A stretch of 64,000 bases of DNA from Felis catus (lineage: Eukaryota). The translations under genes were made by a program, and so were the position numbers. The notes under the pieces were generated by a model that had not been told where the DNA came from, ran no database searches, and saw nothing but the letters and a program-made list of their open reading frames with translations. The stretch is from NCBI RefSeq assembly GCF_018350175.1, contig NC_058380.1:44268001-44332000 (forward strand), in the 5' to 3' direction. This document shows, piece after piece, positions 7,519 through 56,185 of the stretch. Within the stretch, counting starts at the first letter, position 1. Every line of letters begins with the position of its first letter.

Positions 7519-7569
7519 TCACACGTTGTTGCTGCTGTGGCAATGTCTAGATGGTTTCTTGGCTGCTTC
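7519..7569 (-). CDS. Possible alternative C-terminal coding segment EAAKKPSRHCHSSNNV* at the start of the terminal exon (phase 0)
   Basis: Open phase-0 frame from the acceptor to TGA at 7519-7521 (end of track ORF 7519..7866). It would be translated only if an upstream stop-containing exon is skipped. Confidence 0.3.
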   Translation of the reverse strand, partial: EAAKKPSRHCHSSNNV

Positions 7570-9221
7570 CTTGGATGAATGGGACAGAGGGATAAGAACC
7601 GAAAGGAACATATCAAAAATGAGGCTAAGGGTGGTGGAAGATAAGGAACAACAGTAGTGAAAAACCAAAATACAACAGGTGACACAGCAACTCGAAGCAC
7701 AGTGAGGAAGCAGGGCAAGGTCAGAGTACCTGCCCAAGTGAAGGGAATTATGTTTGTTGCTTACTAAAGCAAAGGCAGAAAAGAATGAGAAGGAAGCCAG
7801 TGTGCTAGAACAGTCTCGAATGCACACAGCAACAGGATGGTGAGATGGTGGGCTCAGTATTCTCATGCTTTCAAGTGGTTAGGACAGCATCCTGGGGTAG
7901 GTGGGGGTGCATCTCCAAGAGCTGGTGGCTCTCATTTAGGGGGGCACGAAGAGGGGTGTCACACGCGACTAGGATGAACACAACATGTACACGTAAGCCA
8001 GAGCACATCGTGCACCTGATTGGTGTCCTACAGACAATGAATGCCTCATGGAGAGTGGTCTTAGCCACCGTGGCCTGAGAGGGCCTGAGAGGCATGAATG
8101 AAAATTCACCGGCAAGGGGAAATGGCCTCCAGTCAGCACACTTCCCACAGAAATTAACCAAGGTCCCTTTACACCATTGGATCAGGATTCTAACGGGGCC
8201 TCATCCAAGCTGAGTTTCTCTGGGATAGGAGGCAGTGAAGGAGTTCAAGACAGGGCTGTTTAATCCCATCTAGCAACATCCATTATGTCAACGGAGCAAG
8301 AGGTAGCCAGGATCGGAAGAGGGATGAATCACCAGTGAATATCATCCTGGGTACCACCTGGTGTCTCTTCACTGTAACATATCTCTAAGAAGCCCACACA
8401 GCCTAAGAAAAAATTCCAGAACCCAGTGGTTGGTGCTGGAGCTGAGCCTATAAGCCGATTGTGAATGCTGCCTGTCATGGCGACCCCCCCCCCCCCTTGC
8501 TTTCATGCCATTTGGATCGTTGTGGCCACAGGCATCTTGCTCCAAGATCTGTAGGAGGGATGAAGTATTTCCACTTCCTTCCAGGTCCTGCCGGCAACAT
8601 AACAACCTGCTTTAAGGTACCTCCTGATTCCTGTCCATACTTCATGATTGGTAAGTCAAGGGAAGGGTCTTATCTTCAGTCTCAAAGAATCTATGAATAA
8701 GAATTCATGTTTCGGGTTCCTAATCTCCTTTCCTAAGAAGGGCATGGACACATATTTCTCCTTCCAACACTGACTTTCTCAGCTCCACTTTTGAGGGTTT
8801 TGGCATTCTCAATCCTTTTTTCAGCAAACCTCCCCAGATAGGTGGAGGAGAAAAACGACTTCTCACCTTTCAGGCCTCAAAATTCTGATCTATAAGACAG
8901 AAATTCAATAGAAGCATCTATGCTGAGTTCCTTTTATTGGAATGAAAAACAGAGGTAGAGAAATCAGTGAGAACAAGTATTTATCACTTAAGTGTTAGCT
9001 GACAGGAAAAAAAAAGATTAATTTGTTTATTGTTTTTTGATCAAAGAGCTTTATTTTTGGTACTGGTTTGGACTGCATGTGGAGACCTAAAAATTAAGGC
9101 TTTCTCAATACAAATGGGTGGTAGTCTCTCAGTAAAGTTGCCTAATACCTATCAAGAAGGTGTGTGCAGATACTGGATTATATCACAACCATGGAAGGAT
9201 TATTTTCAGTAGCAAATGGAA

Positions 9222-9380
9222 GTTAAAGACACGGGCTTTGCAACCAGGGTGTAGGTTCGAATCCATGGTCTGCCACTTATTAGCTGTGTGACTTTGAGCA
9301 AATTGCTTGTCCTCTCTAAGCCTTGGTGTCCTCAGCTACATAGGGGCATAATTGTACCTATCCCATAATGCTGGGATAAA
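9222..9380 (+). mobile_element. MIR SINE
   Basis: ggttcgaatcc...tctgccacttattagctgtgtgactttgagcaaatt. Confidence 0.8.
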
Positions 9381-10024
9381 GAGTAGTAGATAAGACAACA
9401 ACTCCCAATAACCCACCAGGGATGGGCAGCTTTATTGCCGCAAGAACCCCAAGAAGCGTGAGGAACCCATGGGACACGGAGCAGAGCATTTAGAGAATCT
9501 GGTGTTTTACACAGGTTTGTTAAAACAAATTCAACACTACTTAAAGAGGTTTTACACAGATATCTGCTGCTCAACAACAAAAGATATTTTGCCACGTCGG
9601 GGCCAGCATATCAAAGAAATTTCTTCATCAGTCCTGCTCTTCGACTCTTGGATCTATGCAGAATGCCAAAATTTGGACTGTAACCATTGCAATAGCATGT
9701 GACCATTCATCTGACCACAAGTGTTCCAGCTTGGGACCTTGGCAACTTCCTTTCTGATATTTGCACACAAGCCTGTCTGTCTAACTAGGCTGTCCATATG
9801 TCGGAGGCAGAGACCCTCTTCCTCTTAGATCCCTTCCAACGGAACCTAGAACAGTGCTTTTCTCTTATCACACGCTCTCCTCACATTTCTTAAATAAAGT
9901 ATGTAAGTGCCCAGCTCCCAAATGACACTGAGGTTTTGGATGCTTCGTTTTGTCGAACTTCCCTAGAAGCTAAAGTCAGGAAGGCAGGCGCGAATGCCTG
10001 AAGCTTCTTGACTGCCGATACCAT

Positions 10025-10230
10025 GATAGCATCATCAAGGTTAAGAGTGCTTCTGAGTGAGATAGACAAGATAGCTAATTCAGAGCAGTGGCTCTACTCC
10101 TTATGAGCTGGGTGATCCTCCCTGGGCCTTGATCTCCTCTTCAGTAAAATGGGGACAAGAACAATAAGTACCTATGCTCAGAGGGGTTTTTGGAGAATCA
10201 GATGAGAACAAGTATAGAAAGCACTTTGCA
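10025..10230 (+). mobile_element. MIR SINE
   Basis: ggttaagagtg...gtaaaatggggac...gtaccta...gaaagcactt. Confidence 0.7.
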
Positions 10231-11869
10231 TTGGGGTGACACAGGCATCCTTAGCAATTAGTACCCCTTTTCATTGTCTGCCAAAGCTCCCACATGAACA
10301 TCAACTCAGCCTAGCAGGATGTTGCTGAATCCCCTTCAACCTGATTATCTCCGTGGACGAGCACCAATGTCAATGTCTATACTTGCCATACAAGTCAACA
10401 ACACCCCCTCCCCCCCCCCCCCCAGACTTCTTCCCTTAAACGCGAGGGAAACTGTCAGAAGAAAAACTTTCAGTTTAGTGAAAGGCTTCCCTGGCTCACT
10501 TCCAGAACCGTATTTTGCAGTTTTAGCCCAAAGTGTTTTTTTTTTTTAATTTGTGAATTTATTTTCATTATTGAGATTTTGTGAACGGGTAGCTATGACA
10601 GTCAAGCCTTTGTAATTTCCCATCCCACTCCCCAACATAAATGTAGCATTTATATTTGTAGAGCTATTTAATTCTTAAGTTTCTTGCGGCATATCTGGGT
10701 TTACCTTTTTCTTGTCTCCTCATGTGAAAAACTTGCATCACAATAAACCTGAGTTCTGAGTTAAAAGGTATTTTCTAATGCAGCCCGATTTAAAGCTTTG
10801 TGTTTGATTTCACCTCAAAAAAAGGCTGCTTGAACCACCAGAATTAATTGCTTCCCATTACAAGGCTTTCTTTGGTCATTATTCTTTTATATCAAATCCA
10901 TGCTGATGCAAGTAGTTTTTTTTTTTTTTAACTTAAAAATAACCTTTAAAGACTGAGGTTAAATGAGGAAACAACCATGAATCCTCACTTCTTACTCAAG
11001 TCAGAAGGAAAGGAATATTTTAACCTTCAAATTCTCACAAGAAGCTTTCAAAGTACTGACTCATCACAGAAGCTCTGCTCACCATTCCGTGGAGGGGAAT
11101 GATGCTCATGTGTTAAGCTTCCCTAAGAGGCTCCTAATGTGTACACGCTTGCCCAGGGACAGCTGTACTTCACATGTGGCAACATACATATGTCACACAC
11201 AAGGTGTCAACAGAGATGATCCTGCTCTATGGAGTTCTTTTCACATCTGACTCTTCCCGATCTATGCTAGTGAGTACTTCTTTTTCTTCTATGAGACGAA
11301 AACCTCTCACTTAGGCTTTTGGACGCCAGGCAACAACGGAGTAAATGAAAATAAAGGGCAAATTGGTGGGTGATCTTCCATCAGCTACTGAGTTTCAACA
11401 GGATTTAGGAACACTCCTCTCAGAAATTCATCACCTGAGTCCCAAGCCCTTGGGATCGAGCCCCTTTGTGAAACACTCTTCCTTTTAAGCTTCCTGCAAA
11501 CCTAGACACGTTGGTTTGTTACGGCTCTTAGTTTTGTTTCCCACATTCGCCACATGTATTTCTGTTTGTGTCCTTCTGCTGACGTCATTCTGAGGCCACA
11601 GCTCCCAGGAAATACTGATGTTACATCGGGAGTCAGAATGGTCCCCAGCATCTGGCCTGGTGTCTGGAGCACAGAAGACATTCTGACAAAGCATGAATGA
11701 ACCACAGGGGCCAGGTATGTAGGTGAGCAAAGTGGGCTGGGGACAATGACAGGGAATGGTGTGATGATGGACAACTGGACAGTGCATGCGTAAAAACGGG
11801 CAGTGGCCACGCACCTCCAGTTCCATGAGGAAATGCAGGTATAGCGTTGATCTGCTGATTATTCCAGGG

Positions 11870-11986
11870 AAGCCAGATACCTGGATTTTAATGTGAAAAC
11901 TCCTGAGTTTTAAATGTTGGCGACAAATTCCAAATTAAAAAAACACCACCTGGGTCATATTGGCCTCATCGATTTGCAATCTTTGG
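11870..11986 (-). mobile_element. MER102-like hAT-Charlie fragment
   Basis: ggattttaatgtgaaaactcctgagttttaaatgttggcgacaaattc...tttgcaatctttg. Confidence 0.65.
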
Positions 11987-13059
11987 TTTAAAATTGGGCT
12001 GCTCTGTCTTTTAAATATTAGTTGGATGGATGAATGAATGAACAAATGAGACCAACTAGGCTCTTTGAACTGGGAGGGGTCCTTGCTTACATAACCCTTC
12101 TCCAGAGGGTCAAGGACTTGGGCTCACTTCCTTGTCTGTCTCAAAGCTTACATTTGTGATGTAGGTACTACAATCTGCTCATCTGTGGCTTAGGAACCAA
12201 TTGAACCTCATCACCTCAGGCTCCTCTGGGACCACCAAGGTGGATCTCATGTCAGGTCCACGAAGCAGCTATGATCTGTGACTGTCCTTCTATATGCATG
12301 TTCTTGCCCAGCCGGCTCTGCCACACAAACAGTGGTTTTGTTTTGTTTTGTTTCAAATACTATTTTGGGAAGGAATGGAAGTTGCCCATTAGGTGTAACT
12401 GTTCCCAATTATCTTTCAGGGAACTATCTGGGTTAGAAAAATACAGTGGAAGGTTCTGAGAGGTAAGTTAGGACCACAGATGGAGGTGCCGTATAATTAC
12501 ATGGGAATTATCATCCTCGAACAGTGAACAATAATGTGTGGTCATCACTGTGGATCATCCAGATGGTTCATAATGAAATGCCCAAGTGAGTCCCCAGATA
12601 CTCTGACTTCTTATAAATTTGTCACCTAATTTGCAGCCTTGCTCCTCTGTGGTGTTGCTTAGCAATATCAATGGTTACTGATTTCTGTCCTGTGAGAAGC
12701 TGACTTGGGCCATATTTCACTGTAATTTACATGCTCTGGATGATCAAACAAGAAAAATGGGACCTGGATGTGCTGATCTGTTGCTTTCCTTTTGAGGTCG
12801 GTTGGGGGAGGGGGAGAGCACAGGATAGAGCAAGCAGGTTTCTGGAAAGTAATTTTAAAGAAAAGCAGTAAGCGACCTAGGCAGGAGAATCAACCCAAAC
12901 GGTGTGGTTAAAAAAAGATTTCCCGAGCTTTTATGAGTATCCTTTTAATCACGTAATGAAAAACCTCAATGACAACCTTAACATAATTTTAAACACTGAT
13001 ACTTTGTCAGAATGTTTTTTTTTCCCCAAAGGGATGGAGAAAAGCAAGTGATGATATAG

Positions 13060-13290
13060 CATAACAGCTATAGCATTTATAGTTTGGAGCCCTACAGACT
13101 TAACAACCAAGTCTGCTATGTACTAGCCCTGACACCTTGGGCATGTTACCTAACCTCTCTGATACTCAGTTCCTTCACTTACATAAAATGGGACCAATAA
13201 CAATTGTCTTGTAGGGCTGGGGTGAGGATTACAGGTACTTAACACATCACTGGCACATAATATTCATTAAACATATGGTAGGTATTATAA
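13060..13290 (+). mobile_element. MIR SINE
   Basis: ccttgggcatgttacctaacctctctg...tcagttcc...aaaatggg...gtgaggatt. Confidence 0.75.
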
Positions 13291-13306
13291 TGGCTTTAAA
13301 ATATCA

Positions 13307-13436
13307 GGGGCGCCTGGGCGGCTCAGTCAGTTAGGCAGCCGACTCTTGATCTCAGTTCAGGACTTGATCTCAGGGTTGTGAGTTCAAGCTCTGCATTGGG
13401 CTCCATGTTGGGTGTGGAGCCTACTTTAAAAAAAAA
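13307..13436 (+). mobile_element. CAN-SINE (short form lacking the CT tract)
   Basis: ggggcgcctgggcggctcagtcagtt...gggctccatgttgggtgtggagcctactttaaaaaaaa. Confidence 0.9.
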
Positions 13437-13607
13437 GTATCTGTTGGTTTTTCCTTCAAAGAGATATCATTCTTCTGATCTTTACAAAATCAGAGAGAAC
13501 CTGATATCAAGACACCTTCTCATCATCATGCAGAACATGGAGGTCTTGTAGCATAGTGTAAGTTTTGGAGTCAATAGATGTGGGTTCTAATCCAGACTTT
13601 AATTCTT

Positions 13608-13796
13608 TTTTTTTTTTTTTTTGAGAAAGAAAGAGTGTGAATGGGGGAGAGGGGCGGGGTGGGGGGAGAGAATGCTAAGCAGGCTCCATGCTCAGCATGG
13701 AGACCAGCATGAGGCTTCATCTCATGACCCTGGGATCATGACCTGAGCTGAAATTAAGAGTCAGGTGCTCAACTGACTGAGCCACCCAGGTGCCCC
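13608..13796 (-). mobile_element. CAN-SINE inserted into a MIR (MIR spans ~13540-13960, +)
   Basis: Poly-T tail, ...gactgagccacccaggtgcccc, and a perfect 15-bp target-site duplication (TSD) cagactttaattctt at 13593-13607 and 13797-13811. Confidence 0.95.
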
Positions 13797-14163
13797 CAGA
13801 CTTTAATTCTTATTAGATACATGATTTTGTAGTAAGATAGTCAGTCTTTCAGAGCCTTAGTTTCCCCATCAGAGTACTAATTCTAGAACTCCCTATTGTG
13901 TTCTTGTAAGATACTTTACTTGATGTCTGGAACATTGGAAGTGCTCCATAAATGGGAGCCATCATTCTTTAACTGTGCCAAAGCCCAGTGAGTGATGAGT
14001 ATCCAGGCTAACATAAGTCACAAGAAATGACCACCTACCATTAGAAACTTGTTCTAACATCCTTTCACAAGCTCATATTGGAGAAGAAACAGATAAATGG
14101 AGAAGAACGACAAAAATAATGACCCATTGTATCATGCCGAAGGAAGTCATAAATGTTATATTC

Positions 14164-14382
14164 TTTTTTTTCCTTTTTCCTTTTTTTTTTTTTTTTTTTT
14201 AAAGAGAAGGCACACATGTGTGAATTGGGGAGGGGCTGCGGAAGAAGGAGAGAGAGAATCTTAAGTAGGCTCCACACCCAGCATGGAGCCCAACGAGGGG
14301 CTTGATCTCATGACCATGAGATCATGACCTGAGCTGAAATCAAGAGTTGGAAGCTTAACAGACTGAGCCACCCAGGCGCCCC
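14164..14382 (-). mobile_element. CAN-SINE
   Basis: T-rich tail, ...gactgagccacccaggcgcccc, TSD approximately tgt(t/c)atattctttt. Confidence 0.95.
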
Positions 14383-14529
14383 TGTCATATTCTTTTGTAT
14401 AATCTGACATCAAGGACACGGACACTGTTAGTATTATTTAGAGAACGTGCAGCTCAGGGAAAGAGATAATATAAAGATCTTTAAGTTTTGATTTTCAAAA
14501 GGAAGGTTCAAAAGGGACTTCAGCTGTTT

Positions 14530-14780
14530 AGTAAAGTGGTATTGTTGAGTGGTTGAGAGAGTGAATTCTGGGGGGCCAAATCTGAATTTGAATTACTTCT
14601 CTTGTGTCCTTAGGCAAATTATTTAATTACCTTAACTTTCAGTGTCCTTATCTATAAAATGTTATAATAGAAGTTCCTATCTCACAGGGTTGATGTGAAA
14701 ATTAAATGAGTTAATTTAATAAAATGCTTAGCACAGTGTCTGGAACATAGTAAATGTGCAATAAACGGTAGTTATTATAA
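14530..14780 (+). mobile_element. MIR SINE, near full length
   Basis: gtggttgagagag...ccttaggcaaattatttaa...tctataaaat...attaaatgagttaat...gcttagcacagtgtctggaacatagtaa. Confidence 0.85.
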
Positions 14781-15255
14781 TCACCCCTGTGAGCATCTAT
14801 CCAGAGTTTTGGCTAAATGTTTGATACTTTCTCTGGTGTCTTCTCTTTCAGCTGGAGTTTCCAAAGACAAAATTATATTGTCACAGGTAATGAAAAACTA
14901 TAGTTGGAATAGCAAAGAACACAGAATATCAGGTACCATCCATATAAAATTTGGAATTTATCTCTTATTTCAGAAAATCTTCCTGAGCCCTACTAATGGC
15001 AAGTTTCTAAAACATGTTTTCAATAAATTTTTGTGTGTGTGGGTAAAGGGTTAGGAAGCTAACAGTTTCACTAATGACATATTCTAACATCTTGGGCACA
15101 TTTACGCATCTCTGGAAACTGAAAGGCTATGTTTACAAAACCAAGCAAAATGTACTTTTTGACTGAGTCTTATCAAATCTGGGGTGCAGGACACTGACAC
15201 ATATCTCAGTCTTTAAAGTGGCCAAACACTCCATTCGGTTTTCCTGCTCCTGCAT

Positions 15256-15257
<2 letters not shown>

Positions 15258-15293
<36 letters not shown>
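15258..15293. repeat. Poly(T)36 homopolymer
   Basis: Uninterrupted T run. Confidence 0.95.
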
Positions 15294-15302
<9 letters not shown>

Positions 15303-15454
15303 TTATAAAGTGGTGTATATAGATAGGCCCACCATTTTCTTTCATAGACATAGAAACTTGGTTCTATTACATATGACCAAGATCCACAGGGCGGGGCCCT
15401 AGATGTTACTGAAGCTTCCACATCATAAGCCACACTCACAACCCAACCGGTCAG

Positions 15455-15965
15455 GAAGCCCTATCAGTTCCACCCCTAAATATCCTCAATTCTGTCTTTT
15501 CTACTCCATCCCCATTGCCCCCGCCTTAGTCTGAGGCTCTTGCCATACTCTTATTTGAACTTTCAATTCCTAATCTTTCTCACCTCCGACTGTCTACTCT
15601 CACCTATGTTTCACACTTTCCAGGGGAATGTTTCAAAACACAAAACCAAAAAACAACAGCTCCAAATCCTACACTTTTTGTGTTGGACTTTTATTAGGTT
15701 TCCTAGTTTATTCAATCCTTTAGAACCCAGTTCTGAGGCTCCCTCCTGCAGGCAGCATCCCTGAACGCCCCCTGTCCCTAGGGGGAGTCACGCCCTCCTG
15801 TGTGTGTGTTCCAAGTACGTACTTTTGTTGTGTGCTCATCAAATGTACCTTAACCTATTTGCTTTCTGCCCTATAGGGCAAAGAATCATCTTACTCATTT
15901 TGTTAATTTTAGCACCCAGCAGAGTTCCTGGCACTCTGTAGGTGTTCAAATGCTGCTGAACTGAA
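15455..15965 (+). mobile_element. L2 LINE fragments
   Basis: ctactccatccccattgcc...ttagtctgaggc; 3' end agcacccagcagagttcctggcac...gctgaactgaa. Confidence 0.65.
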
Positions 15966-16679: not shown

Positions 16680-16890
16680 TTTTTAAAAATTAAAAACGTT
16701 TTCTTTTAGAGAGAGAGAGAGTGAGCATGAGTGGGGAAGAAGGGCAGAAGGAGAGAATCTTAGGTGCCACGTTCAGTGCGGAGCCCAATGCGAGGCTCGA
16801 GGTGGGGCTTGATCCCATGACCCTGGGATCATGACCTGAGTTGAAATCAAGAGTTGGTTGCTCAACCAACTGAGCCACCCAGGTGCCCCC
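16680..16890 (-). mobile_element. CAN-SINE
   Basis: 17-bp TSD aaagtaaaaactattct at 16663-16679 and 16891-16907; (GA)n tract; head ...gagccacccaggtgcccc. Confidence 0.95.
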
Positions 16891-19880: not shown

Positions 19881-19927
19881 CAGCTGAGGCTGCATGCAAA
19901 CGTTTTTCTTGGCTAACGTAAAGTGAT
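19881..19927 (-). other. Candidate 47-nt (or 53-nt, alternative AG giving start 19933) cassette exon
   Basis: cgtaac branch-like motif, ctttctcttcatcccaag|tcatag| acceptors and a consensus CTG|gtaagt donor. Exonic TGCATG; lies in a repeat-free block. Confidence 0.45.
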
Positions 19928-22900
19928 CTATGACTTGGGATGAAGAGAAAGGTTACGATACTGCCTTTCAGGGATAACTTCCCCACATTTTGAATGAAAT
20001 AGGCATGAAAATGACTTTCTTCTGGGATCAAATGACAACTTATGAAAACTCATATTGAAGCTCTTTTTAAAAATAGAAGCTAGGGAAATAACAAGTTCTG
20101 CTGTTTGGTGAGAAAGAAAGAAAACCCAGCAAGCAAGTGAACGTTTTTAATCTTAGTGTCAGCTTCAAGTTAGCACTAAATGTATATGTTAAAGAATTGG
20201 AATGATTTTACAAAATAGATGTATGGCTATGTGTGCAGAAGATGTGTGGCTATAGATGGGAGTCCTGGGTACGTGGAAAACATTCAGGCTCTGACGGCAA
20301 ACTCCGGAGCTAAGTGACTATGAGCAAGTAATGTCACTCTCTGTACTTCAGTTTCCTCAGAGATAAAACACACAAAAATTCCAAAGCCACTGTTCAGGGA
20401 ATTACTGAGATGACTATCAGGTGGGGGGCACAGTGTGCCCAACTAATTCTACCCTCTAGTTTTCCCTCTTCACCATCTGGAAGACCCTTCCTGTCCTACA
20501 CTTGAGTCACACACATGCACAGGTATGGTAGACACAGACACAGACGCACACACACTCCTAGTGCCCCTTGACACGAGGAGAGACTGCCAGAAAGTTAATT
20601 CAGGGGTCAAAGAGCCACATACGTGCCTGCTCATCCCAAAGGAGTCCCCATTCTGGTTGGGCCAACAATACTAGTTTTGGATCTCCAAGCGCACCGGTTC
20701 CAATGCCTTGAATTCCTGCCTTCTTCCCTGCCTGCCCGGGCTCCTCGCCTCCTTTGAGAACCACAAGCTTTCTTTAGGCACACTCTCCTGCTGCCTCTGC
20801 CTTCAGGTTCACGCCCTGAGATGACCTTCAGATCCGGCAAGCAGCGATCACCCACGTCGAGTGTTTACTCCAGCCACCACTGTGCTCAAGGCTCTATGTG
20901 CCCCGGCATGGTTGGCCGGTTTGGTTTATTCACCTGCACTTGTCACAGTGTGATGCTGCCTCCATAAATGTGTACTTCCACTGCTTCAGGGCTGAGGACC
21001 TTGTTCCTTCAAATAAATGATGCGAGTGCTCTAGGAAGTCCCTCTCCATCCCGCAGAGCGCTCCACCTAAGAGCGATGAAAAGATTCCTGAGGACAGGGG
21101 TGCTCCCCTCTTACTCCTATTGGTAAGGGGCTCCTCTGGAGTGACCCCAGCTGCCTCCTCCTTATGCCAAATACTTCAACCAGAACATCCAAAAGCTGCA
21201 GTCTGATCTCTGATAGGGGCACATTTTCCCTTTCTGTTCTTTGTGAAAAGTGTCTTTGCTCTTTTTTATTCTACATGAATTTACAAATCGAGTTGATGAA
21301 GTCACATAAAATATCTTCTTGGGATTTCAATTAGGACTGAGTTGCATTGAGCGTTTAACTGAGGGAGAACTGATATCTTCATTAAATATCAACACTGAGA
21401 TCGTCTGTGTTCTTCGGGTTTTTGCTATAAAGTTCTTAAACATTTCCTTTGGGTTAATTCTTGGTACTCGATGGCTTTGTCGCATTTGTAAGTGGTGTCT
21501 TTATTGCTTTTATGTTTATTATCACCAATCTAGAGGAAAGCTCTTGAATCGGGCACATTGCTAAAGGATTTGACATGAGTGAACTCTTAATAGTTCTACA
21601 CTGTTATTTAAACATATTTTTACTCTTCCCTCTGGGAATTCTTTTGAACAAAGGGTTCTGCTGTTAATTTTTTTTTTAAGTTCGAAAACCCATGGGAAAG
21701 ATGGTGAAAAGACCAGATATTTGCTACTCATTTGTGAGGTTTTGCATTGAGATGTCCCAGAATTCAGGTCACTGAAGCAGCTTGTTCACCACCCACTGCC
21801 TGAGCCACACTGATAAAGCATAAGACGGACACGGGATGTCACAGTAACTACTGGAGAGGAGTTGAGGGAGCAAAATTGTCCTTCAGGAAGCCAGCAGAAA
21901 GGCTCCCAGGACACTCCCCTAACCAGTCTGAACGAAGGTAACATGAATGGAAAGTCACGACAGCAGAGGCAGGCTCTGGTAATGTGAAGTGAATTTGCAA
22001 AGGGAAAAATTTCCCTGTCTTTCTAACAGCAAATAAGCTAGGTATGAGCACAGTGTCATTTCCAGACCTCTCCTCATGGGATTCTGAAGATTTTGTTACA
22101 AAAAACAGCCTGAGGGGAATTGCATACAAGGCACGGGCAGCGTTTCTAAACTGCCTCAAACCCTATAGTTAAATAATCCTTCAGTTCAATGATAGGTCAT
22201 TAGGCAAGTATTTTTCTGACTTTTGTGTTTCTATCAGGTGCACTTATCTGTTAGATTTTGCTGGTAATAATAAAATTGTTTTTACCATGAAAAAAATGTA
22301 AGTCAAATTTTAAAATTCCACAAAAAATTACTGGAATTGTAGAAGATAATCCCAGAACCCAGAGAGACTGAATGAGGAACTTCTTTTGTGATTTCCTTCT
22401 CAAATACAATTTAACACAAAAGGACGTGGTAGATGCTATTTTACAGGCATTTGGTTTTGTACAATGGATGGAAGGCTAAAACAATAAGCTTTTTAGAATT
22501 CTGTAGTGATGGTAATCACAATGGGTAATTAGGCCCATGAAATGCAACAAGTAAAGGAACCAAAGGTACAACAAAGGGAAGAAAAGGAAATGAAATGGAA
22601 GAACCAAGAGTTTGGAAAGAAAGGCGTAAGTGGACAGGAAAACTCACCAAGAAGGCGAGATGCAGAGAGCAAACATCTCCCGTCACAGCAATACCTCCAG
22701 AACCAGAGGGGGACTTAGTCACTCATCCAGCATATAAGGGCCATGTAAGAGGCTGGGGATACAATGGTGGCGAAAGTAGAAATGACTGCTATTCATTCTT
22801 GCAGAGACAGCCATCAACTGACTAGGACTTTGCTGGGCACAGTGAGAAAGAGCCCTTTGGCAGGGCACGGGCCAAGACAATTTACAAGGCCAGAGAGATA

Positions 22901-26363: not shown

Positions 26364-26560
26364 ATTTATTTATTTATGAGAGAGAGAGAGAGCATGCATG
26401 ATCAGAGGAGGGGCAGAGAGAGAGGGAGAGAGAATCTCAAGCAGGCTCCACTCTGTCAGCATGGAGCCTGAGGCAGGGCTCGAACTCACAAACTACAAGA
26501 TCATGACCTGAGCTCAAATCAAGAGTCAGAGGCTTAATTGACTGAGCCACTCAGGTGCCT
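26364..26560 (-). mobile_element. CAN-SINE (copy A of a tandem pair)
   Basis: (ATTT)n tail, (GA)n tract, ...gactgagccactcaggtgcc. Confidence 0.95.
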
Positions 26561-26652: not shown

Positions 26653-26802
26653 AAGAGAGACAAAGAGAGGGTGAATTCCAAGCAGTCTCCACACTGTCAG
26701 CACAGAGCCTGATGCGGAGCTGTAACTCACAAACCATAAGATCATGACCTGTGCCCAAATCAAGAGTCAGAGGCTTCATGGCCTGAGCCAACCAGGCGCC
26801 CC
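26570..26802 (-). mobile_element. CAN-SINE (copy B of a tandem pair) with long (GA)n
   Basis: ...gagccaaccaggcgcccc; aatatggtggtg repeated at 26350-26361 and 26803-26814. Confidence 0.95.
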
Positions 26803-30171: not shown

Positions 30172-30212
30172 CTTCGAGAAGGCTCTTTGGATGGTCACCA
30201 ACCACCCTCCAA
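30172..30212 (-). other. Candidate 41-nt cassette exon
   Basis: gtcctgattctttggcag|TTGGAG...TCGAAG|gtaaat; moderate splice sites. Confidence 0.25.
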
Positions 30213-33601: not shown

Positions 33602-33640
33602 CGGTAGAGCCGGCTCATCCTTGTCCCTGGCTGTGGACGA
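33602..33640 (-). other. Candidate 39-nt cassette exon (phase 0: SSTARDKDEPALP)
   Basis: Long polypyrimidine tract ttgtcttttgtttttgcctttttctcttacgcag|TCGTCC...CTACCG|gtagga. Length is a multiple of 3, no stop in phase 0, CpGs retained, repeat-free flanks. Confidence 0.6.
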
Positions 33641-46749: not shown

Positions 46750-46918
46750 AATGTGGGGTCCACAGTCTAGATTGAGGTGAGCTTATCTCTGTTTCAGATT
46801 GCCTGAAATGGTAAACTTTTGTGTATGTATCCATTTTCAGGGGTAGGGAGAAGAGCATCCACTGTGGCCATCAGATTCTCAAAAGTGCAACCCTAAAAAA
46901 AAGGTTGAGAACCATTGA
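46750..46918 (+). mobile_element. MER103-like hAT-Charlie fragment
   Basis: catcagattctcaaaagtgcaacccta...ggttgagaaccattg. Confidence 0.55.
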
Positions 46919-47844
46919 TTTAATGCTTTCAAAATGCTTACCCTTTGGAAGCTGGGAGATATTATTACCAAGGGCATAAATTATCAACTGCTAACTGACA
47001 GAAAGGAGGAATTTCAAAAAGACTCGTCTATTCTATCCAATCGACAGCCTGGTGCCACTGAACTGGGTTCTGGCACAGAGCTAGAGAAGACGGCAGCACG
47101 AAGCATATTACACACACTGACAAGTTCCCAATTAGTTCAAAGTCTTCAGGAAAATGATCTGAATGTCACTGCAGATGGCCTAACTCTATTCGGTGGGCAG
47201 AGTCCAGGCAGAGTGCCAGAGGCCCACTCTGGAGATCAGGCCCCTACCTTGCCCGGACTGTGTCTGTTCCCAATGTAGCCCCTCTCCAGGCTTTGGTGGC
47301 CTTTAGGGAGGTTTCCAACTGCGACTGAGCTCACCTTGAAGAAACGCAGAAGGGGAAGCAGAGAAACCCAAAATAAACAAGTGAGAAAAAGGAAAAGCGT
47401 CTCCAGATACCTGGACGTTTTAAAAACGGGTGAACTTTCTTGCAAATGCCAAAAGGAACAAAACAAGGGTAGGAAGAAGCACCAGGTGCTGTGCTTAGTA
47501 TTCTTACATGGCTGTCTCACAGCATTAGCAGAAGTAGCAGGACCTCCTTAGCATCTCTGTTTCATAGCCGGAAACAAGTGAAGCTCAGAGAAGTGTAGCA
47601 ATTGGATGGGGGTAAGGACAGCTAGTTAGTTACTCAGGCAGCTGGGGTGAGAACCCTGTCTGTTGAATGCACGTTTTGTTGTTTTGTAAATATTCACTCG
47701 GGTGAGGGAGGATAGGTATGGAATGCACAATGAAAAAGAACAACAAACAAGTGACATCGGCTCACACTGTGGGGTCATTTGCTTACTGCGCTTTATTTTG
47801 AGCTAGCTTCTGTTGAAAAATGCATGGTGAGAGACAAGTCAATA

Positions 47845-48030
47845 GCACTTAGCATCTGAACCACTTGATTTAAATGCATTATCTCATTTAATATTAGAGG
47901 TCCATAAGCATTACCAATCCCACTTTACTGCTGAGAAAGTAGCCTGGAGAGGCCGAGTGAAGAGCCCAAGGCTACAGATACAGTACTTGATAAAGTTGGG
48001 GTTCACACCCAAAACTGGCCCAGGAGCCAG
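47845..48030 (-). mobile_element. MIR SINE
   Basis: atgcattatctcatttaat...cccactttactgctgagaaa...cccaagg. Confidence 0.6.
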
Positions 48031-48340
48031 TGTTCTCCTTCTCTGTAGGCTTGAGGCTATGGACCAGGTGGGATCAGGACACATGTTAACACCTGGGAGG
48101 GCACCAACTTTGAGGCCACCAGAGAACACTTAGTTGAATGAGAAAAGGTTACTTTCTTTCTCAAATGAACCCTTGGTTTATCCAATAAACACATTCTTGA
48201 GAAGTTTTATAGAAAACCGAGTTTTAGCAAATTGAATTGATCTTTACTGCCAATGGGTATCCATTAGGCAGATGATTCTAATATGTTCTGTTTACCCACA
48301 CTGTACATCCACAAATCAACATTTAAACTTCCTGGGATAC

Positions 48341-48573
48341 GGGGTGGCTGGGTGGCTCAGTTGGTTAAATGTCTGACTTTGGCTCAGGTTATGATCTTGT
48401 GGTCTGTGAGTTACAGCCCCATGTCAGGCTCTGTGCTGACAGCTCAGAGCCTGGAGCCTGCTTTGGATGCTGTGTCTCCCTCTCTCTCTGTGCACCAGCT
48501 ACCACGCCCCCCCCCCCCCCCGCCCCCTGCTCACTCTCTCTCTCCCTCTCAAAAACAAATAAATATAAAAAAA
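48341..48573 (+). mobile_element. CAN-SINE (SINEC_Fc type) with a poly-C expansion
   Basis: ggggtggctgggtggctcagttggtt...gtgctgacagctcagagcctggagcctg; TSD taaac(t/a)tcctg(g/a)gatac at 48324-48340 and 48574-48590. Confidence 0.95.
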
Positions 48574-48666
48574 TAAACATCCTGAGATACCTCAAGGAAT
48601 CTCTATTTTTTTTTATAATGGGATAATTATTTCCCAGTGAGTTAGATTTTGATATTTGCGTTCTGA

Positions 48667-49146
48667 CATTAAGAACAAAAATAATTAAGAAAATAAGTAA
48701 TGGGAAACCTCACTAAAATGGAGACAGGAGATAGGCAGGGGGAGCTCTCATAGTCAATTGCAGACCCAACAGGAACACATGAACTTGATGTTACATGGAC
48801 TTGACCTTGCACGTGGATACTACTCTACTATTCCAGCTGGAGGAAGAGACTTATTCCTTACCTCCCCCTGCCACCCTTGCTCCCCGCTCCCTGCCACCCA
48901 CCAATAGCTCAGCCAATGAAAAGCCACCATACTTTGAACTCCCAGTTTACTCCAGTGGATTTTTAGTTTATAACAAGCCTTCCCAAATCACCCCTTTTCT
49001 CCTCAAAAAAGTGTACCTCTCCTTTGTTCCTCAGATTTGCCTACTATTTTGCTGCAGGTTGTTTGTCCCAGATTGCAATTCTCTCATTCTTGAATAAACC
49101 CATCTTTTGTTGGCAAAATAACTGGCAGTTTTTTTTAAGGATAACA
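48667..49146 (+). mobile_element. Carnivore ERV1 solo LTR (CarLTR1-like)
   Basis: ttaagaacaaaaataatt...gtaatgggaaacctcactaaaatggag...two CCAAT boxes...aataaacccat...aaaataactggc...ataaca terminus. Confidence 0.75.
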
Positions 49147-49179
49147 CAGGGTACGGTTCAAGAGGATAAAGCAACGGAA

Positions 49180-49385
49180 AGACACTACAGAATAATGAAA
49201 GTGCTTTAAACAGCCCTGGCTTTGCCAATTACTAGTTGTGTGGCCTCCAGCCAGTTACTAAAGGGCTGTACGCCTCAATTCCTATACCGTAATATGTAGA
49301 TGACAGCTATCTCAGAGGGCACTGTTTAATTATCAAATTAAGTAAGATGATACATGTAAAATTCCTGGATCCCTACTGGCACTTA
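49180..49385 (+). mobile_element. MIR SINE
   Basis: ttactagttgtgtggcc...gcctcaattcc...atacatgtaaa. Confidence 0.6.
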
Positions 49386-49763
49386 AAAAAACATACGTGA
49401 GAATAGGAAATAGTAAGAATCTATAATTGAAACAATTCGATATCTAAACTCAGAAGATGTCAGTCTAGTTGGGATTCCTGCCTCGAACAAATACTGAATC
49501 TCTCAGAAACTTTGGGCAAGAGTTTCAATCTCCTATAACCATCGAGAACCGGGCAAGTCAGTCATTATCATCCCAGATAAGTGAGAATGTAATGTGCTTC
49601 AATTTTTCCATTTTCTCATCAGACAGTCACCATTTTGCATTTGCAGGTGGTTTTAGCAACACAAAAATTCTCTCCCACGCCTCTCCCATGATAACGTTAA
49701 AAAAATCACAAGGTGAAGCTGCTATACTATAGGTAAATGAGTAGGCTTTCCAATTTTATTAAT

Positions 49764-50187
49764 TGTGGTAGTTTGTTTGCAAAATGATTACAACTATCCT
49801 CCTCCCTGTATCCAGGTACCTCTGCAACAGTGGCTTTGTAGTTTCCTCCCATCAGAAGGTGGAGTTTATTTCCCTTCCCCCTGATCTGAGCTAGTCTTAC
49901 GACTTGGTTTGGCCAATAGAATGTATTAGAAGTGACAATGTGCCAGTTTCCAGCCTAGACCTCAAGGGACCGTGCATGCATCCAGATGTTCCCTTGGAAT
50001 TCTGCACAGCCACCATGTGAACAAGTCCAGCCTCGCCTGCTAGCTGTCCCCTGTCATGCCAGCCATCACCCAGTCAGATGACAGAAATTGCAAGTGAGTG
50101 TATGTGCGTGGTACGCACTCAGGTGTTTTTCTCACCCATGGTCTTGTTTGGACATGTGGGTCACATTGACAATATCTGGATAACTAA
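49764..50187 (+). mobile_element. MLT1 (MLT1H-like) solo LTR
   Basis: tgtggtag...tcctcccatcagaaggtggagtttatttccc...ttggccaatagaatg...gaagtgac...gcctagacctcaag...caccatgtgaacaag. Confidence 0.8.
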
Positions 50188-50658
50188 TTTCCAGTTGTAA
50201 TGACGACAACATTTCTCATTAGTGGATTCTCAAATCTCAAATAGGGAAACTGAGATAGACACATTTCCTGTAATATTAGAGCTGCACTGAGAGTCAATAG
50301 CTTTTAGGCCCTGCTAAATCTACTTATCCACAGTTACTCACTGAGGAAGCAAATCAACCTTTAAAATATAAGGCATAGTAATGAAGGAAGTGGCGGGGGG
50401 TGGGGGGAGGCTAAGAGAAAGAAAATAGCTCTTGTTAACTTGGAAAGCCTACGAATATTTATTCTATTAACCAAACCTCAAACCATATGCACTCTTAAAA
50501 ATATGTTTGGGAATGGATTTCTAAGATCCTTCATGCTTCAATATAATAACTGGATAAAAAACTTAGATGAATGAAGAACTTTAAGCTGCCTGAAGAAATT
50601 AGTTACCGGTTGAGAACGTGGTAAATAAGAAAAATCTCTCTGTTGGAGAAGTCACAAA

Positions 50659-50798
50659 NNNNNNNNNNNNNNNNNNNNNNNNNNNNNNNNNNNNNNNNNN
50701 NNNNNNNNNNNNNNNNNNNNNNNNNNNNNNNNNNNNNNNNNNNNNNNNNNNNNNNNNNNNNNNNNNNNNNNNNNNNNNNNNNNNNNNNNNNNNNNNNN
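50659..50798. other. Assembly gap (140 N)
   Basis: Run of N. Confidence 0.99.
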
Positions 50799-51037
50799 CT
50801 GAGTACTCACTGCATAAGTAGGATCAGATCTATTTGGAAAATAAGGAGTTCAATATTCACCTTTTTAGGTGGTGAAGTTGGGTGCCTTTCTGTATTGTTG
50901 GGCGACACATCTTCAGATGTCTTGGGTTTATCTTAGGTCACTTAAACATTTTTAAAAACTTAAACTAATACTTGGGGTTTTGACCACAACAGCAATACAC
51001 ATTCATTTGGACAGCGCGGGTCTTGACAGGGGGTTTG

Positions 51038-51266
51038 CAGAACCAGGACAAGGGTGAGGAAAATGGCTCATTTACCTCATGCACAAAAATTTCAGGAGGC
51101 ACCAGAAAACTCGGTAATATAAAGGATATAAAGGCAATGTTTCAAAAATCAAAGTTAATGCCCAAATTCCATGACTAACAGAAGATCAAGATTTTAAGTA
51201 AAGACAGGCTTTGATCCTGTATCTGCCTGACCCTTTCTCGCTTACCTTACCTGGATCCTGGCCCTG
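51038..51266 (+). mobile_element. MER96B-like hAT-Tip100 MITE, full length
   Basis: TIRs cagaaccaggacaagggtgagg ... ctggatcctggccctg; internal aaaatcaaagttaatgcccaaattccatga. Confidence 0.75.
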
Positions 51267-51767
51267 GTTCCAATAAACTTCCATTTATAAAAACAAGCAG
51301 CTGAAATCATATGTATTTGTCTTCCTTGACTTATTTTGCTTAGCATATAATACACTTTAGCTCCATCCACTTTGTTGCAAATGGCAAGACTTCATTCTTT
51401 TTTATAGCTGAGTAATACTCATATGTGGAATTGAAACAAAACATATGAACAAAGGGTAATTAAAAAAGGAGAGAGAGAGAGAGAGAGAGAGGGAGGAGAA
51501 GCAAACCATAAAACAGACTCAACTATCGAGAACAAACTGAGGGTTGATGGAGGAAAGTGGGTGGGGGATGGGCTAGATGGGTGATGGGTATTAAGGAGGG
51601 CACTTGGTGAGATGAGCACCGTGTGTTGTATATAAGTGATGAATCACAAATTCTACTTCTGAAACTAATAATAATAATGTGTTAACTAACTAGAATTTAA
51701 ATAAAAACTCGAAACAAACCAACAAACCACCAAGCAGCTGGCCCATGGACTGTGGTTTGCCAACCTG
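51267..51767 (+). mobile_element. MER58-like hAT-Charlie 3' fragment split by an L1
   Basis: gttccaataaac...tttataaaaacaagcagctg [L1] gcccatggactgtggtttgccaacctg. Confidence 0.7.
51304..51730 (+). mobile_element. Carnivore LINE-1, 5'-truncated with a 5' inversion
   Basis: 10-bp TSD caagcagctg at 51294-51303 and 51731-51740; ~51304-51416 is L1 antisense and ~51417-51730 is the L1 sense 3' end. Confidence 0.9.
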
Positions 51768-51870
51768 ATTTTTAAAATACCACATTAAAATATTACTTAT
51801 CTTGATTACTGAGATTTTGGGTGCCTCCTTCAATTTTGTGCCCCACTCACCTCACCCTGTTCCAGCCCTG
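51768..51870 (-). mobile_element. MER96B-like MITE, 5' part only, inverted
   Basis: tatcttgattactgagattttgggtgcctccttcaattttgtgcc...cctcaccctgttccagccctg. Confidence 0.75.
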
Positions 51871-52040
51871 GGAGTTTGGATTTTGTTCCAGGTTCACATG
51901 ATAAGCCAACGAAGGTTTTCAAGCAAGTGACTGATGGAATTTAAGTTTTAAAACGATGGCTTTGGCTGCTGTAGAGATTGGAGGAGGATCAAATGCAGAG
52001 AGATGGGAGGTCAGGAGGCTGATGTACTAGTCTAGTGACG
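51871..52040 (-). mobile_element. L2 LINE fragment (host of the nested MITE cluster)
   Basis: ggagtttggattttgttcc...aagccaacgaaggttttcaagca...ttttaaaacgatggctttggctgctgt. Confidence 0.7.
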
Positions 52041-52676
52041 CTACTCTTGCCCAAGTCACCAAAGGCCACTCTGACGTGAAGACAGTGGCCACTTCCTGTC
52101 CTCACATGTCACTGGCTATGTCAGCATGTGTCTAACTGTCATGTTGTCATTGAGACTCTCCTTCTATCTCATTGAGTGCCCTCTTCTGTTCTCAGTCCTT
52201 TGGCCTTACACACCATCAATGGACACCCATAGTCCTGACTTTGTCCCCTCAGAACATGCACATCTCGCTGCCAGTTAGCCGTCTCCATTCATTGTCTAGT
52301 GGGTGTAACAGACTTCACACAGCCAATTTCATTTTCATAGATATTAATGCCTTTCTCTCTGTACTGTTGAAATCAGTCCAATCATACACTTAGATGTTAT
52401 AAAACATCTTCATATTTCTTTGGTTTATTTTAGGTTGCTTAAACATTTTTTTAGCACCTAAAATAACATGTATGTGTTTGGACTATAAAAGCAACACATG
52501 CTTACTAAAAATTTTTATTTCCATTCCCCAACCTGTTAATCTTCTATCTACCTTTTAGTAGAGGAGGGCACTACCATCTACTCAATTGCTCAAGCCAAAA
52601 AATTAGGAATCTTTCTTAATTTTTCCCTTCCCCTTTTCCCCTACATTCAGCCTGCTAGCAAATATCACAAAGCCTA

Positions 52677-52891
52677 GGGGCACCTGGGTGGCTCAGTTGG
52701 TTAGGCATCTGACTTTGGCTCAGGCCGTGATCTTGCGGTTCACGAGTCCAAGCCCCATATTGGGCTCAGTGCTGACAGTTCAGAGCGGGGAGCCTGCTTC
52801 GGATTCTGTGTCTCCCTCTCTCTCTGCCCCTCCCCCACTTGCGCGCGCTCTCTCTCTCTCGCTCTCAAAAATAAATAAGCATTAAAAAAAA
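52677..52891 (+). mobile_element. CAN-SINE (SINEC_Fc type)
   Basis: ggggcacctgggtggctcagttggtt...gcctgcttcggattctgtgtctccctctctc...aaaataaataa. Confidence 0.95.
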
Positions 52892-54778
52892 TACCATGAA
52901 GTCTATTGCCAACACTTGCCCCCATTTGTCTTTAAAAAAATCATCAACCTTAGTAGGTCTCGTAAGGACATAGTTCCCACATATGTAGGGTACCGTCTGC
53001 CCCAGATGGAGAAGGCTGGGGTGGCAAGGGGTAAGAGTGTGTGAATAGTATTGTTGAATTCCCAGGACAGGCGTAGAGAGATAGACTGGATTGGCTTTTG
53101 GAGGGCAGAAGATGCAGTTTGGAGAGAAGTAGTTCTCCATGTGTCTGGGTCTCTTCAGGTAGAAAGGGTCTCAACTTTAGGTCTAGCACACATACTCTCT
53201 TACATCCTATGCTGGGTCCACACATCTAGATCTGGGACCAGAGAGTGAAATTCTCCAGCAGATGGTTGGTCTTGGAAGGGGTAGGGTGATTTTAGTGAAA
53301 ATGTGTCTAGTCTTCATCTGGGATGGTGCCCAAACAGACAGGGCTGGTGACACCGTTCAGCCAGAGCTCAGCTTGAATGGCTCAGGATCTATGGCCTGGC
53401 ATGGGGGTGACACCAGGTGGCAATGTACCAAAACCACAGATTCAGCTTTCCAGCTAAGAGTATACTCCTCTGAGAGCCATTTTTGCCAATGTAGAGGCCA
53501 CTTAACCGGTAGCTATGCCTCCAGGTCCTGCTCACATAGACCAAATGAAGTTTGTTTGCTTCTTTTGCTGTCGTTTGATTTGGCTCTGATGGTTGCTTGT
53601 ATGGGGATGAGACTTTCCATGTTTTATGATTGCAAGATCCTGTTCCGAGACATGGTATTAATTTTTCTGAGCAGATCTGAATGAGTTCATCAATCGTCTA
53701 CCCACTTAAAAAATCAGTGGATTTGATTTAGTAATGACTGATTTTAAATGCTCTTTGCATATCAAATGTAAGCTGCCTGACCCTATTAAGAAGAAGAATT
53801 TTTATCTTAAGGTTAAATATTGAAAAATTATAAATACCTGCTCTACTTATACCTGCATCTTACCGAACTCAGTAGACTCTACAGTATAAAAATATTAGAT
53901 TTACTGTCTCTTTCCTGCTGAAATGTCTATTTGCCGAGATCAAAGGACCCATTATTCAGGCTAGATGTTACATTTTCCACCAATCTTATTTCTAGGAAAT
54001 ATTTCTAGCTCAGTTTTTGACATGCCTCTTGTGCTCCACATTCTGCCACTGCCATTAAATTTGAATAACTGGTGCAGATGACCCTATCATGGTAGCAAAT
54101 TAAGCACAGACCCTTCGGGTCTATTTCTCTGTATGCGGAGCGTCTGCTACCAAAGGGCCATCAAGGAGTCCAATGAGGATACATTCCAGAGAATGCATGG
54201 GAGGTCTTGTTCCCACAGACACTACGTACCAGGACAACTGCCCTACACACTCCTGTACCCTTTGGAAGGGGAAGAATGTCATGTCTGAGCCTTCTCTCTG
54301 TAACATATATTTACCAAAAATAACTATGAGTACCTGTGTGTGCCTTTCCAGGTTGCAAAGCACTTGAAATATGCGACTATCAATACGCCGTGTAGGACTG
54401 CAGTTCTCACCATTCAATTTCTTCTGCAACACTTGAGAATGACATGGACATGTGTGGCACCGACACAGCAATGGACTAGTGATGTGCTTAATCCACAGAG
54501 TGCAGGACTGCCCAGGTTTTATGTCTTTGTCTCGTTCCTCCTTGTGCAAGCTTGCTGGACTCAACTGAGTGAGGCTGAGGTTACTGAGGTAACCTTGAAA
54601 CCTCTCTAATTGGTGGAAGTAAATTTTTGAACTTGGGTACTTTGGTCATTGGGGATAATAACTGCCTATGACACACCTCACACCTGAGGATACACTCATC
54701 CAATTCCATGCTGCACTTGTAAACTTAGAGCTTCACGAGGAATGGCGTCTCTCATCTAAAGATCAAAGATTTATTTAA

Positions 54779-54999
54779 GGGCACCTGGGTGGCTCAGTAG
54801 GTTGAGCATCTGACTTCAGCTCAGGTCATGATCTCATGGCTAGTGAGTTCGAGCCTTGCATTGGGCTCTGTGCTGACAGCTCGGAGCCTAGAACCTGCTT
54901 TGGATTCTATGTCTCCCTCTCTCTGCCCCTCTCAAGCTCGTGCTCTCTTTCTCTCTCTCAAAAATAAATAAATGTTCAAAAAATTAGAAGAGTAAAAAA
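54779..54999 (+). mobile_element. CAN-SINE (SINEC_Fc type)
   Basis: gggcacctgggtggctcag...gtgctgacagctcggagcc; TSD approximately atcaaagattt. Confidence 0.95.
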
Positions 55000-55139
55000 A
55001 TCAAAGATTTCTGTAAAGTGAGAATAAGTTCAGTGTTAGACATAGCCATGGTGGAAATGATTCAGTGATTCAAATGGATGTAGGTGGGAGACTGGCTTTT
55101 GAAGGATAAGGACATTCAGCCTAAATGGACATGGTTATA

Positions 55140-55365
55140 TATTTTGTAGGTGACACTTATTATATGCTTAATATTCCAGAAAGGGTCTATGATTCACTCA
55201 TTAAATCCTTGTAACAGCCTGTAAGGTAAGTTCTGTTTTCATCCTTAAGTGACAGAATGGGAAAACATAAAACAGAGGAAGGGGAAGATAAATCATTTGC
55301 CCCATGCGAACTACAGTGAGTGAAAGAGTTGAGCTGAGTCTATGCCCTTGGCCATTATGCTACTC
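55140..55365 (-). mobile_element. MIR SINE
   Basis: cactcattaaatccttgtaacagcctgtaaggtaag...gggaaaac...catttgccc. Confidence 0.55.
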
Positions 55366-56059
55366 TCTATCTCCATTTAAGCTCGTTTGATTTTAAATTA
55401 CAGTCCTGTTTTCCTCACCTGACCTTAGCTTATGCATAGCTTCTCTATATTTTCACGTAATCTGCTTGAAACATAAAGAGTTGATGTTCATGTTTTAAAA
55501 AAACTTATCGTGACACTTTTCATGTTCTGCTTAGTGGATACTTGTAAATAACTGAAAATAGGATTCTTCATAAAGAATATTCAATATCAACATCAACGTT
55601 ACTTGTTTGCATGAAAAATTCTGTAGGTGAAAGACTATATTAGTATTCTTACTCTGTGATCTCTAAGTAGAAAAGTACTAAATAGGGTCTTTTTCATGAG
55701 TTAACCATTAACTGGAACTTCCAAAACAAACTTTGAATAGGCATAAAACTAAAGGAGTAGAATAAAAAATATACAGTACTTGAAGGTGAGATAAAACATC
55801 TTATTTTGTTACATCCTATTTTGTATAAGTTTAGAGGCTCCCCATCCCCATGGATGAAAATAATTTTAGCATTCAAGCTATATACTATAAAGATATAGAC
55901 GGAGGGGACACATTATCAAGAACACAAAAATGTCTGAATGCTATAAATACACTCAGCTCCGTGAGATTAAATTAGCTAATGTATTAATATAATTCCTATT
56001 CACATTCATTTGTAAAGACAAAGATAACCAGAATTCCCACCATCTTAGGAATATCTTAC

Positions 56060-56185
56060 ACTGAAAAACTGACATTATTATTATCATTTTACTTAAAATT
56101 TCTTTGTTCCTTAGAGTGTGCTGCATTGTTACAACTGATCATTCCACGACTATGATTTAGCCTAACTTCGTTTGTGAGCTTTCGG
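56060..56185 (-). other. Candidate exon with strong acceptor (phase 0: PKAHKRS*); 3' boundary uncertain
   Basis: ccctgattttcttttacag|CCGAAAGC at 56185 and a possible donor AGT|gtaaga at 56060; CpG-retaining unique flanks. Confidence 0.3.

Follow-up and report, generated by a model that had tools for sequence, protein, structure and literature searches.

The 3′ end of a likely ERC2 gene

We analysed a 64,000 nt stretch of the Felis catus genome (contig NC_058380.1, 44,268,001–44,332,000; hereafter the window), the minus strand of which very likely contains the 3′-end of ERC2, the gene encoding the active-zone scaffold CAST/ELKS2. An initial annotation had placed four short segments with splice signals in the last intron of this gene and had interpreted them as a possible hidden bank of cassette exons, providing either alternative C-terminal tails or a switch for nonsense-mediated mRNA decay (NMD) within the 3′ untranslated region (UTR). 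The putative last exon and 3′ UTR ran from 7569 to approximately 4570 (−) and contained a 156-N gap. Its acceptor was preceded by an AG-free zone of 53 nt and an AATAAA was found at 4593–4588 (−), giving an acceptor-to-signal distance of 2,982 nt (~3.0 kb, gap included) as compared to a last exon of 2,935 nt in mouse Erc2. Upstream of this exon the window comprised 56.4 kb (56,431 nt) of intron with no Pfam match and no coding exons, as compared to 158,288 nt for the last intron in mouse (coordinates from PMC7397853 and PMC5989265). In the size of its last exon and in its long empty intron the window agrees with the 3′-end of mouse Erc2; this part of the annotation was supported in outline, although no sequence match tied the window to ERC2. 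We consider it probable that a carnivore ERC2 gene ends in the window, which would comprise the last 56 kb of its giant last intron together with the last exon, that three of the four segments are pseudo-exons, and that the choice between gene ends is regulated as it is in mouse.

A search of sequencing runs with words from the last exon and UTR returned 24 rows, 14 of which contained at least half of the words; six of these 14 had the full share of UTR words, the kind of run not being on record. Four of the 24 rows were recorded as RNA. This sharing of words, which counts no splice junctions, hints at transcription of the last exon and does not bear on splicing. A second AATAAA was present at 7472–7477 (−), 92 nt past the last-exon acceptor, and is a possible proximal poly(A) site which would leave a very short UTR.

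The GC content of the window ranged from 36 to 46% and the DNA was mammalian, carrying tRNA-Lys-like short repeats. Repeats of this kind are typical for carnivores. Two tRNA-Lys calls made by ARAGORN, at 26462–26556 and 26705–26797 (−), were the heads of tandem short interspersed element (SINE) copies and were rejected as tRNA genes. An Rfam scan of the window gave zero matches, as did Pfam for 42 frames, taken out of a set that comprised 70 stop-to-stop frames (at least 90 aa each) and the 51-aa read-through of 33640.

Splice signals of the four intronic segments

A letter-for-letter check confirmed the AG acceptors before 56185, 33640, 30212, 19927 and 7569, and the GT donors after 33602, 30172 and 19881. 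The phase-0 peptides were also as described: PKAHKRS and a stop from 56185, SSTARDKDEPALP (open) at 33602–33640, LEGGW and a stop at 30172–30212, ITLR and a stop at 19881–19927, and EAAKKPSRHCHSSNNV and a stop for the last exon. None of the four segments (0/4) overlapped a repeat block found by self-BLAST. The annotation had further argued that the ITLR and LEGGW forms should escape NMD, and its stop-to-donor distances of 32 nt and 23 nt respectively were correct; a stop less than 50 nt from the donor is, however, forced by exon lengths of only 47 nt and 41 nt. The observation was in part confirmed, and the interpretation placed on it was in part supported.

All AG and GT sites were scored with a crude weight matrix made from rounded splice-site frequency tables, the antisense strand serving as the control for pseudo-exon counts. 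Intronic pseudo-exons are acceptor–donor pairs that occur equally often on the non-transcribed strand. Among 4,357 AG sites the acceptors ranked 20 (56185), 28 (33640), 189 (30212) and 425 (19927), and among 3,457 GT sites the donors ranked 82 (33602), 45 (30172) and 13 (19881). At 6/6 bits there were 92 pseudo-exons of 30–250 nt on the sense strand versus 108 on the antisense strand (95 when scaled to equal length). Over equal spans, distinct donors of 25–60 nt candidates numbered 19 sense versus 12 antisense (p = 0.28), and candidates of 25–250 nt numbered 67 versus 56 (123 in total; p = 0.37). Four acceptor–donor pairs on the minus strand (14235–14039, 51968–51851, 8998–8867 and 36283–36190) outscored every named segment; the acceptor of the first of these sits in a SINE. 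A 13-codon stretch of the last intron was open in about half of cases (0.498). Splice-like pairs occurred at nearly equal frequency on the two strands; the named segments do not form a bank above chance, and the proposal of four hidden exons was not supported, as three of the four lay within the background.

The segments at 56185, 30172–30212 and 19881–19927, whose splice signals did not rise above the intronic background, are likely chance pseudo-exons of a long intron. The acceptor at 56185 (11.7 bits) had as its best donor within 400 nt a site of 6.2 bits at 145 nt (56041), and in the resulting form (56041–56185, −) the stop fell 121 nt ahead of that donor. No poly(A) signal was found after 56185 for 1.4 kb, the nearest AATAAA (54775) being inside a SINE. 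Lacking both a strong donor within 400 nt and a poly(A) signal for 1.4 kb, 56185 does not define a short exon and is likely an orphan acceptor. The LEGGW segment (30172–30212, −) had middling sites of 6.9 bits and 8.4 bits and an AG-free zone of 28 nt, and ranked 16th of 24 short sense candidates. The ITLR segment (19881–19927, −) combined a strong donor with a weak acceptor (4.6 bits) that has a rival AG 4 nt upstream, and its donor was also served by better acceptors at 19933 and 20100. The pair 20100–19881, which is 220 nt long, was considered as the counterpart of a 220-nt exon of mouse Erc2 and was rejected: it met a stop after six codons, its distance to the last exon was 12 kb where the mouse exon has 92 kb, and the window contained 43 pairs of 210–230 nt, which have only their length in common with that exon.

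The remaining segment differed from this strand-equal background in bearing additional exon-like marks. The 39-nt segment (33602–33640, −) had a 102-nt AG-free zone with UGC within the pyrimidine tract, a GC content of 0.64 (+0.21 over its AT-rich flanks) with three CpG, and TG-rich sequence downstream that was in the top 0.3% of windows. It was open and a multiple of three in length, with a modest donor of 7.2 bits. Of the 123 candidates on both strands it was the sole one with an AG-free zone of at least 40 nt and a GC contrast of at least 0.10; its splice signals stood above the intronic background by these two filters, which were chosen after the segment had been seen. An open frame and a length divisible by three added little, as 4/67 sense and 4/56 antisense candidates shared both properties. 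SRRM4-type neural microexons are at most 27 nt, carry UGC in the pyrimidine tract and keep the frame. At 39 nt the segment was longer than this; it had the UGC and the kept frame, the former being common (10/24 short sense candidates).

No homologue of the 39-nt segment was found in homology searches, which are too weak for 13 residues. A protein search with its read-through gave nothing at E ≤ 10, a threshold that matches so short would likely miss anyway. Two metagenome pattern scans produced 592 and 591 hits, none of which was confirmed (0), and orthologous DNA for the named segments was not found in the sequence and metagenome pattern searches.

We regard 33602–33640 as the only credible exon candidate among the four segments, and as a lead rather than a test. 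That it is a real, neuron-regulated minor cassette exon appears unlikely, if by no means far-fetched, and is the leading alternative to our preferred reading. Under this alternative, its inclusion after the exon carrying the RIM-binding IWA ligand (the IWA exon) would shift the last junction to 78 nt beyond the stop, with NMD as the consequence, and its inclusion with the IWA exon skipped would add 13 residues before the last-exon tail. The high-ranking acceptor (28/4,357), the AG-free zone, the UGC, the GC and CpG peak and the TG-rich downstream sequence all speak for use of the segment, as does its lone passage of both filters with an open frame and a length divisible by three; the last intron of mouse Erc2 already contains one regulated cassette (listed in a table of PMC7397853). 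Against use stand the post hoc choice of the filters, the donor rank of 82, the equal frequency of open, frame-keeping candidates on the antisense strand, the lack of a homologue in searches of low power for such a length, and the absence of the segment from the seven mouse Erc2 table rows described below.

One further site in this intron, at 47248–47334 (−), resembled a recursive splice site, with a long pyrimidine tract and a 64-nt AG-free zone followed by AG and, immediately after it, GTGAG. It was the sole site of its kind on either strand at the thresholds applied, and the 87 nt up to the next strong donor, a length divisible by three, were open in phase 0.

Known alternative ends of ERC2

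Row 8 of Table S4A in PMC7397853 lists mouse Erc2 exons of 135, 220 and 2,935 nt, and row 4411 of Dataset S9 in PMC5989265 lists a 66-nt Erc2 cassette as a Nova target of module M1+ (entry 1 under Nova); we read the sign as activation. According to the passages of the latter paper, M1 exons switch between P4 and P15. In these rows the two independent tables agreed to the base, the flanks of the 66-nt cassette being the end of the 135-nt exon and the start of the last exon; skipping of the cassette thus joins the upstream exon to the last exon, the same route that would give the phase-0 tail here. The 66-nt cassette itself lies 158 kb upstream of the mouse last exon, and its counterpart falls outside the window. 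According to the table of PMC7397853, the percent spliced in of the 220-nt exon changes by −0.62 and −0.27 in Bmal1 and Clock mutant beta cells, the 135-nt exon flanking the event; the coordinates put the 220-nt exon 91,559 nt upstream of the last exon. A counterpart is likely outside the window since only 56,431 nt of intron are covered. Like the exons proposed by the annotation, the 220-nt cassette is a regulated exon within the giant last intron that is spliced to the last exon, but none of the named segments matched its size or place.

A length of 66 nt can be divided into eight codons and a stop (27 coding nt) plus 39 untranslated nt, agreeing with the distance of 39 nt that the annotation gives between the ERC2 stop and the last junction. 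The mouse 66-nt exon likely carries IWA and the stop, as this arithmetic and the published end of ELKS B, DEE-GIWA (PMC4935463), suggest. According to passages of PMC5830537 and PMC4935463, each of the two ELKS genes gives rise to a longer A end and a shorter B end through alternative 3′ splicing, the B end being the RIM-binding GIWA end and the A end lacking RIM binding; this resembles what was proposed for the cat locus, whereas those passages give no A-tail sequence and name no exons of 39–47 nt. The expression of ELKS2A is not well characterised (as stated in a passage of PMC5830537). The annotation had proposed that tails unable to bind RIM arise when the IWA exon is skipped. Such tails are in print for the ELKS A variants and the skip junction is listed for mouse. 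Kaeser 2009 reportedly defines ELKS2A. The core of the idea, non-RIM tails and a cassette within the giant last intron whose use is regulated, is already known for mouse Erc2 from the tables and passages cited above.

Seven mouse Erc2 rows (1 + 1 + 5) were compared from three tables, in PMC7397853, PMC6952364 and PMC5989265; in these selected lists 0/7 rows represented a 39-, 41- or 47-nt exon of the last intron. Literature listings on Erc2 exons, judged at listing level, contained nothing on the named segments. In human and in mouse, ERC2 also carries a WNT5A-linked heart enhancer, RE1, within its last intron, and homozygous mouse deletions of 50 kb and 43 kb in this region gave Mendelian birth ratios (passages of PMC8768504). 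The RE1 counterpart may, as a guess, lie at or just past 64000 of the window, and conserved intron DNA here may be enhancer rather than exon.

An exon junction more than 50–55 nt past the stop triggers NMD. Assuming, as mouse suggests, that 39 nt separate the stop from the donor, adding 39, 41 or 47 nt would move the junction to 78, 80 or 86 nt beyond the stop; for the 220-nt exon the distance would be 259 nt. The NMD arithmetic is a property of the gene end and no evidence for the segments, because any insert of at least 17 nt would do the same. Cryptic poison exons and alternative splicing coupled to NMD have been described in long introns (passages of PMC11632617). Those exons, like the segments here, are unannotated intronic cassettes whose inclusion would trigger NMD; they are backed by conservation and reads, while the segments here are candidates from sequence. 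Erc2 was not in one supplementary file of PMC11632617, nor in 12 of the 13 supplementary files of PMC11188260, and among the papers listed in literature searches (25 of 324 in one of them) none linked ERC2 and NMD. It is doubtful that the ERC2 last intron acts as an NMD dosage switch, in which inclusion of either the 39-nt segment (33602–33640) or the 220-nt exon known from mouse would lead to loss of the mRNA if it followed the IWA exon and would extend the non-RIM tail if the IWA exon were skipped.

The last-exon tail and the reading of the locus

The phase-0 frame of the last exon, EAAKKPSRHCHSSNNV (7519–7569, −), is the tail expected upon skipping of the IWA exon. With the phase taken as 0, this 16-residue tail ends in NNV and would lack the IWA PDZ ligand. 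It forms the start of a 54-codon frame (7408–7569, −) with stops at codons 17, 34, 45 and 54. A phmmer search with 7522–7611 as the query revealed a match (E 8.4e-4) to P0002, an orthologous 190-aa machine gene call that had no Pfam match of its own. Alignment of P0002 with 7935–7411 (−) extended over 175 codons (525 nt) without a gap, at 67% identity, and spanned a conserved 3′-end of the last intron (7570–7935, −) that includes the acceptor, the pyrimidine tract and six YCAY motifs in 100 nt. P0002 kept the acceptor region: of the final 13 intron codons, 12 were the same in both. In the last exon 39/53 residues were identical, 11/16 over the tail; the stops of the window at codons 17, 34 and 45 were W, Q and W in P0002, which was therefore open for 53 codons, and both frames ended at codon 54.

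The mismatches had a mean BLOSUM score of −0.79 in the intron versus −0.77 ± 0.23 in simulated neutral change, and of −0.55 in the last exon versus −0.13 ± 0.43. In neutral simulations at 12–18% divergence all three stops were opened in 11–23 of 1,500 runs. P0002 is a single sequence and a selected case, since it owes its place in the library to its open frame. As the changes are neutral-like and the stop is not kept in P0002, the 16-residue tail is not conserved as protein, and its sequence appears incidental. A protein search with the tail returned nothing at E ≤ 10, although matches this short would likely fall below the threshold anyway; a longer protein bearing the tail was not found in the protein search (a weak negative), and the ESM Atlas gave no usable match.

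At least six YCAY motifs per 100 nt were present at 16/391 sense and 3/299 antisense acceptor-like sites, and at 7569 there were six; these motifs would fit, weakly, with Nova acting on the upstream cassette. A 119-codon frame (7519–7878) was rejected as a longer exon because none of the ten AG sites inside it was in frame, and P0001 was rejected as a homologue, being a tandem-repeat protein and a chance match.

The alignment with P0002 could also be read as the trace of an old A-form coding tail of 53 codons at the start of the last exon, which would still be open in some mammals and would have been cut to 16 residues in this carnivore by three nonsense changes. The W, Q and W at the stops, the shared end at codon 54, the 175 gap-free codons and the rarity with which neutral simulation opened all three stops would fit such a history, and A variants are longer than B (as a passage of PMC5830537 states). 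We nevertheless judge it improbable: P0002 is one sequence selected for its open frame, the gap-free open stretch continues 122 codons into the intron, the mismatches are non-conservative (−0.55 against the neutral −0.13 ± 0.43), 8% of 53-codon UTR windows are open anyway, and the protein search, as a weak negative, found no longer protein with the tail. Similarly improbable is the assignment of the terminal exon to another gene or to a non-coding transcript, which would make the reasoning on IWA and RIM void; the window has no coding exon and no sequence test linked it to ERC2, but the exon size and the long empty intron match mouse Erc2, and mouse or human primers need not match a carnivore intron. 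The weakest alternative, that all four segments are used as exons for alternative tails and a UTR NMD switch, is highly improbable, for although the peptides and distances were all as stated, YCAY clusters upstream of 19927 and downstream of 30172 were each in the top 1–2% of 60-nt windows and Nova regulates the neighbouring mouse exon (row in Dataset S9 of PMC5989265), three of the four segments were inside the background, 56185 had no donor, the NMD-escape distances were forced by exon length, and the YCAY peaks were maxima over 150 nt at nine places, where some high values are expected.

We return to the reading of the window as the end of carnivore ERC2 with three pseudo-exons and a regulated choice as in mouse. 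Neurons would include the 66-nt exon, the likely carrier of IWA and of the stop, and would so produce the B form that binds RIM, in which the last junction, 39 nt past the stop, would permit escape from NMD. When the 66-nt exon is skipped, the 135-nt exon would join either the 220-nt exon, likely outside the window, or the last exon directly. Joining of the 135-nt exon to the last exon, presumably in phase 0, would yield the 16-residue tail and an A-type form without the PDZ ligand; its stop, being within the last exon, would also avoid NMD. No candidate for an additional minor exon would remain besides the 39-nt segment at 33602–33640.

Several results weigh against this reading. A gap-free alignment of 525 nt is more than expected from usual indel rates, and together with the three opened stops in P0002 it goes beyond neutrality alone. 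The sense strand held a small, non-significant excess of candidates (19 versus 12; 67 versus 56), and the non-use that we infer for three of the segments rests on a crude matrix, by which real weak exons score like pseudo-exons. The mouse tables are selective, the 220-nt exon itself being missing from the Erc2 rows of Dataset S9 (PMC5989265). Neither the published mouse Erc2 quantitative PCR (qPCR) primers nor the human RE1 primers nor three mouse guides matched the window at three mismatches or better than shuffled sequences did, although a cross-order primer match to a carnivore intron is not expected anyway and the Erc2 qPCR pair possibly lies beyond the window. No named protein homologue of the window was found in the protein searches, in which the sole homologue was P0002.

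As it stands the finding is of little importance, as ERC2 ends without the RIM ligand have already been described and most of the segments are long-intron noise. If an NMD dosage switch were true, a single small exon would govern how much of an active-zone scaffold is made and how it couples to RIM; it would be a further member of a well-known class (poison exons and UTR-intron NMD) and no new kind of system. Were the 39-nt exon used and coupled to NMD, it would offer an antisense-targetable control of the CAST/ELKS2 level in neurons and would help to define the poorly characterised ELKS2A forms.

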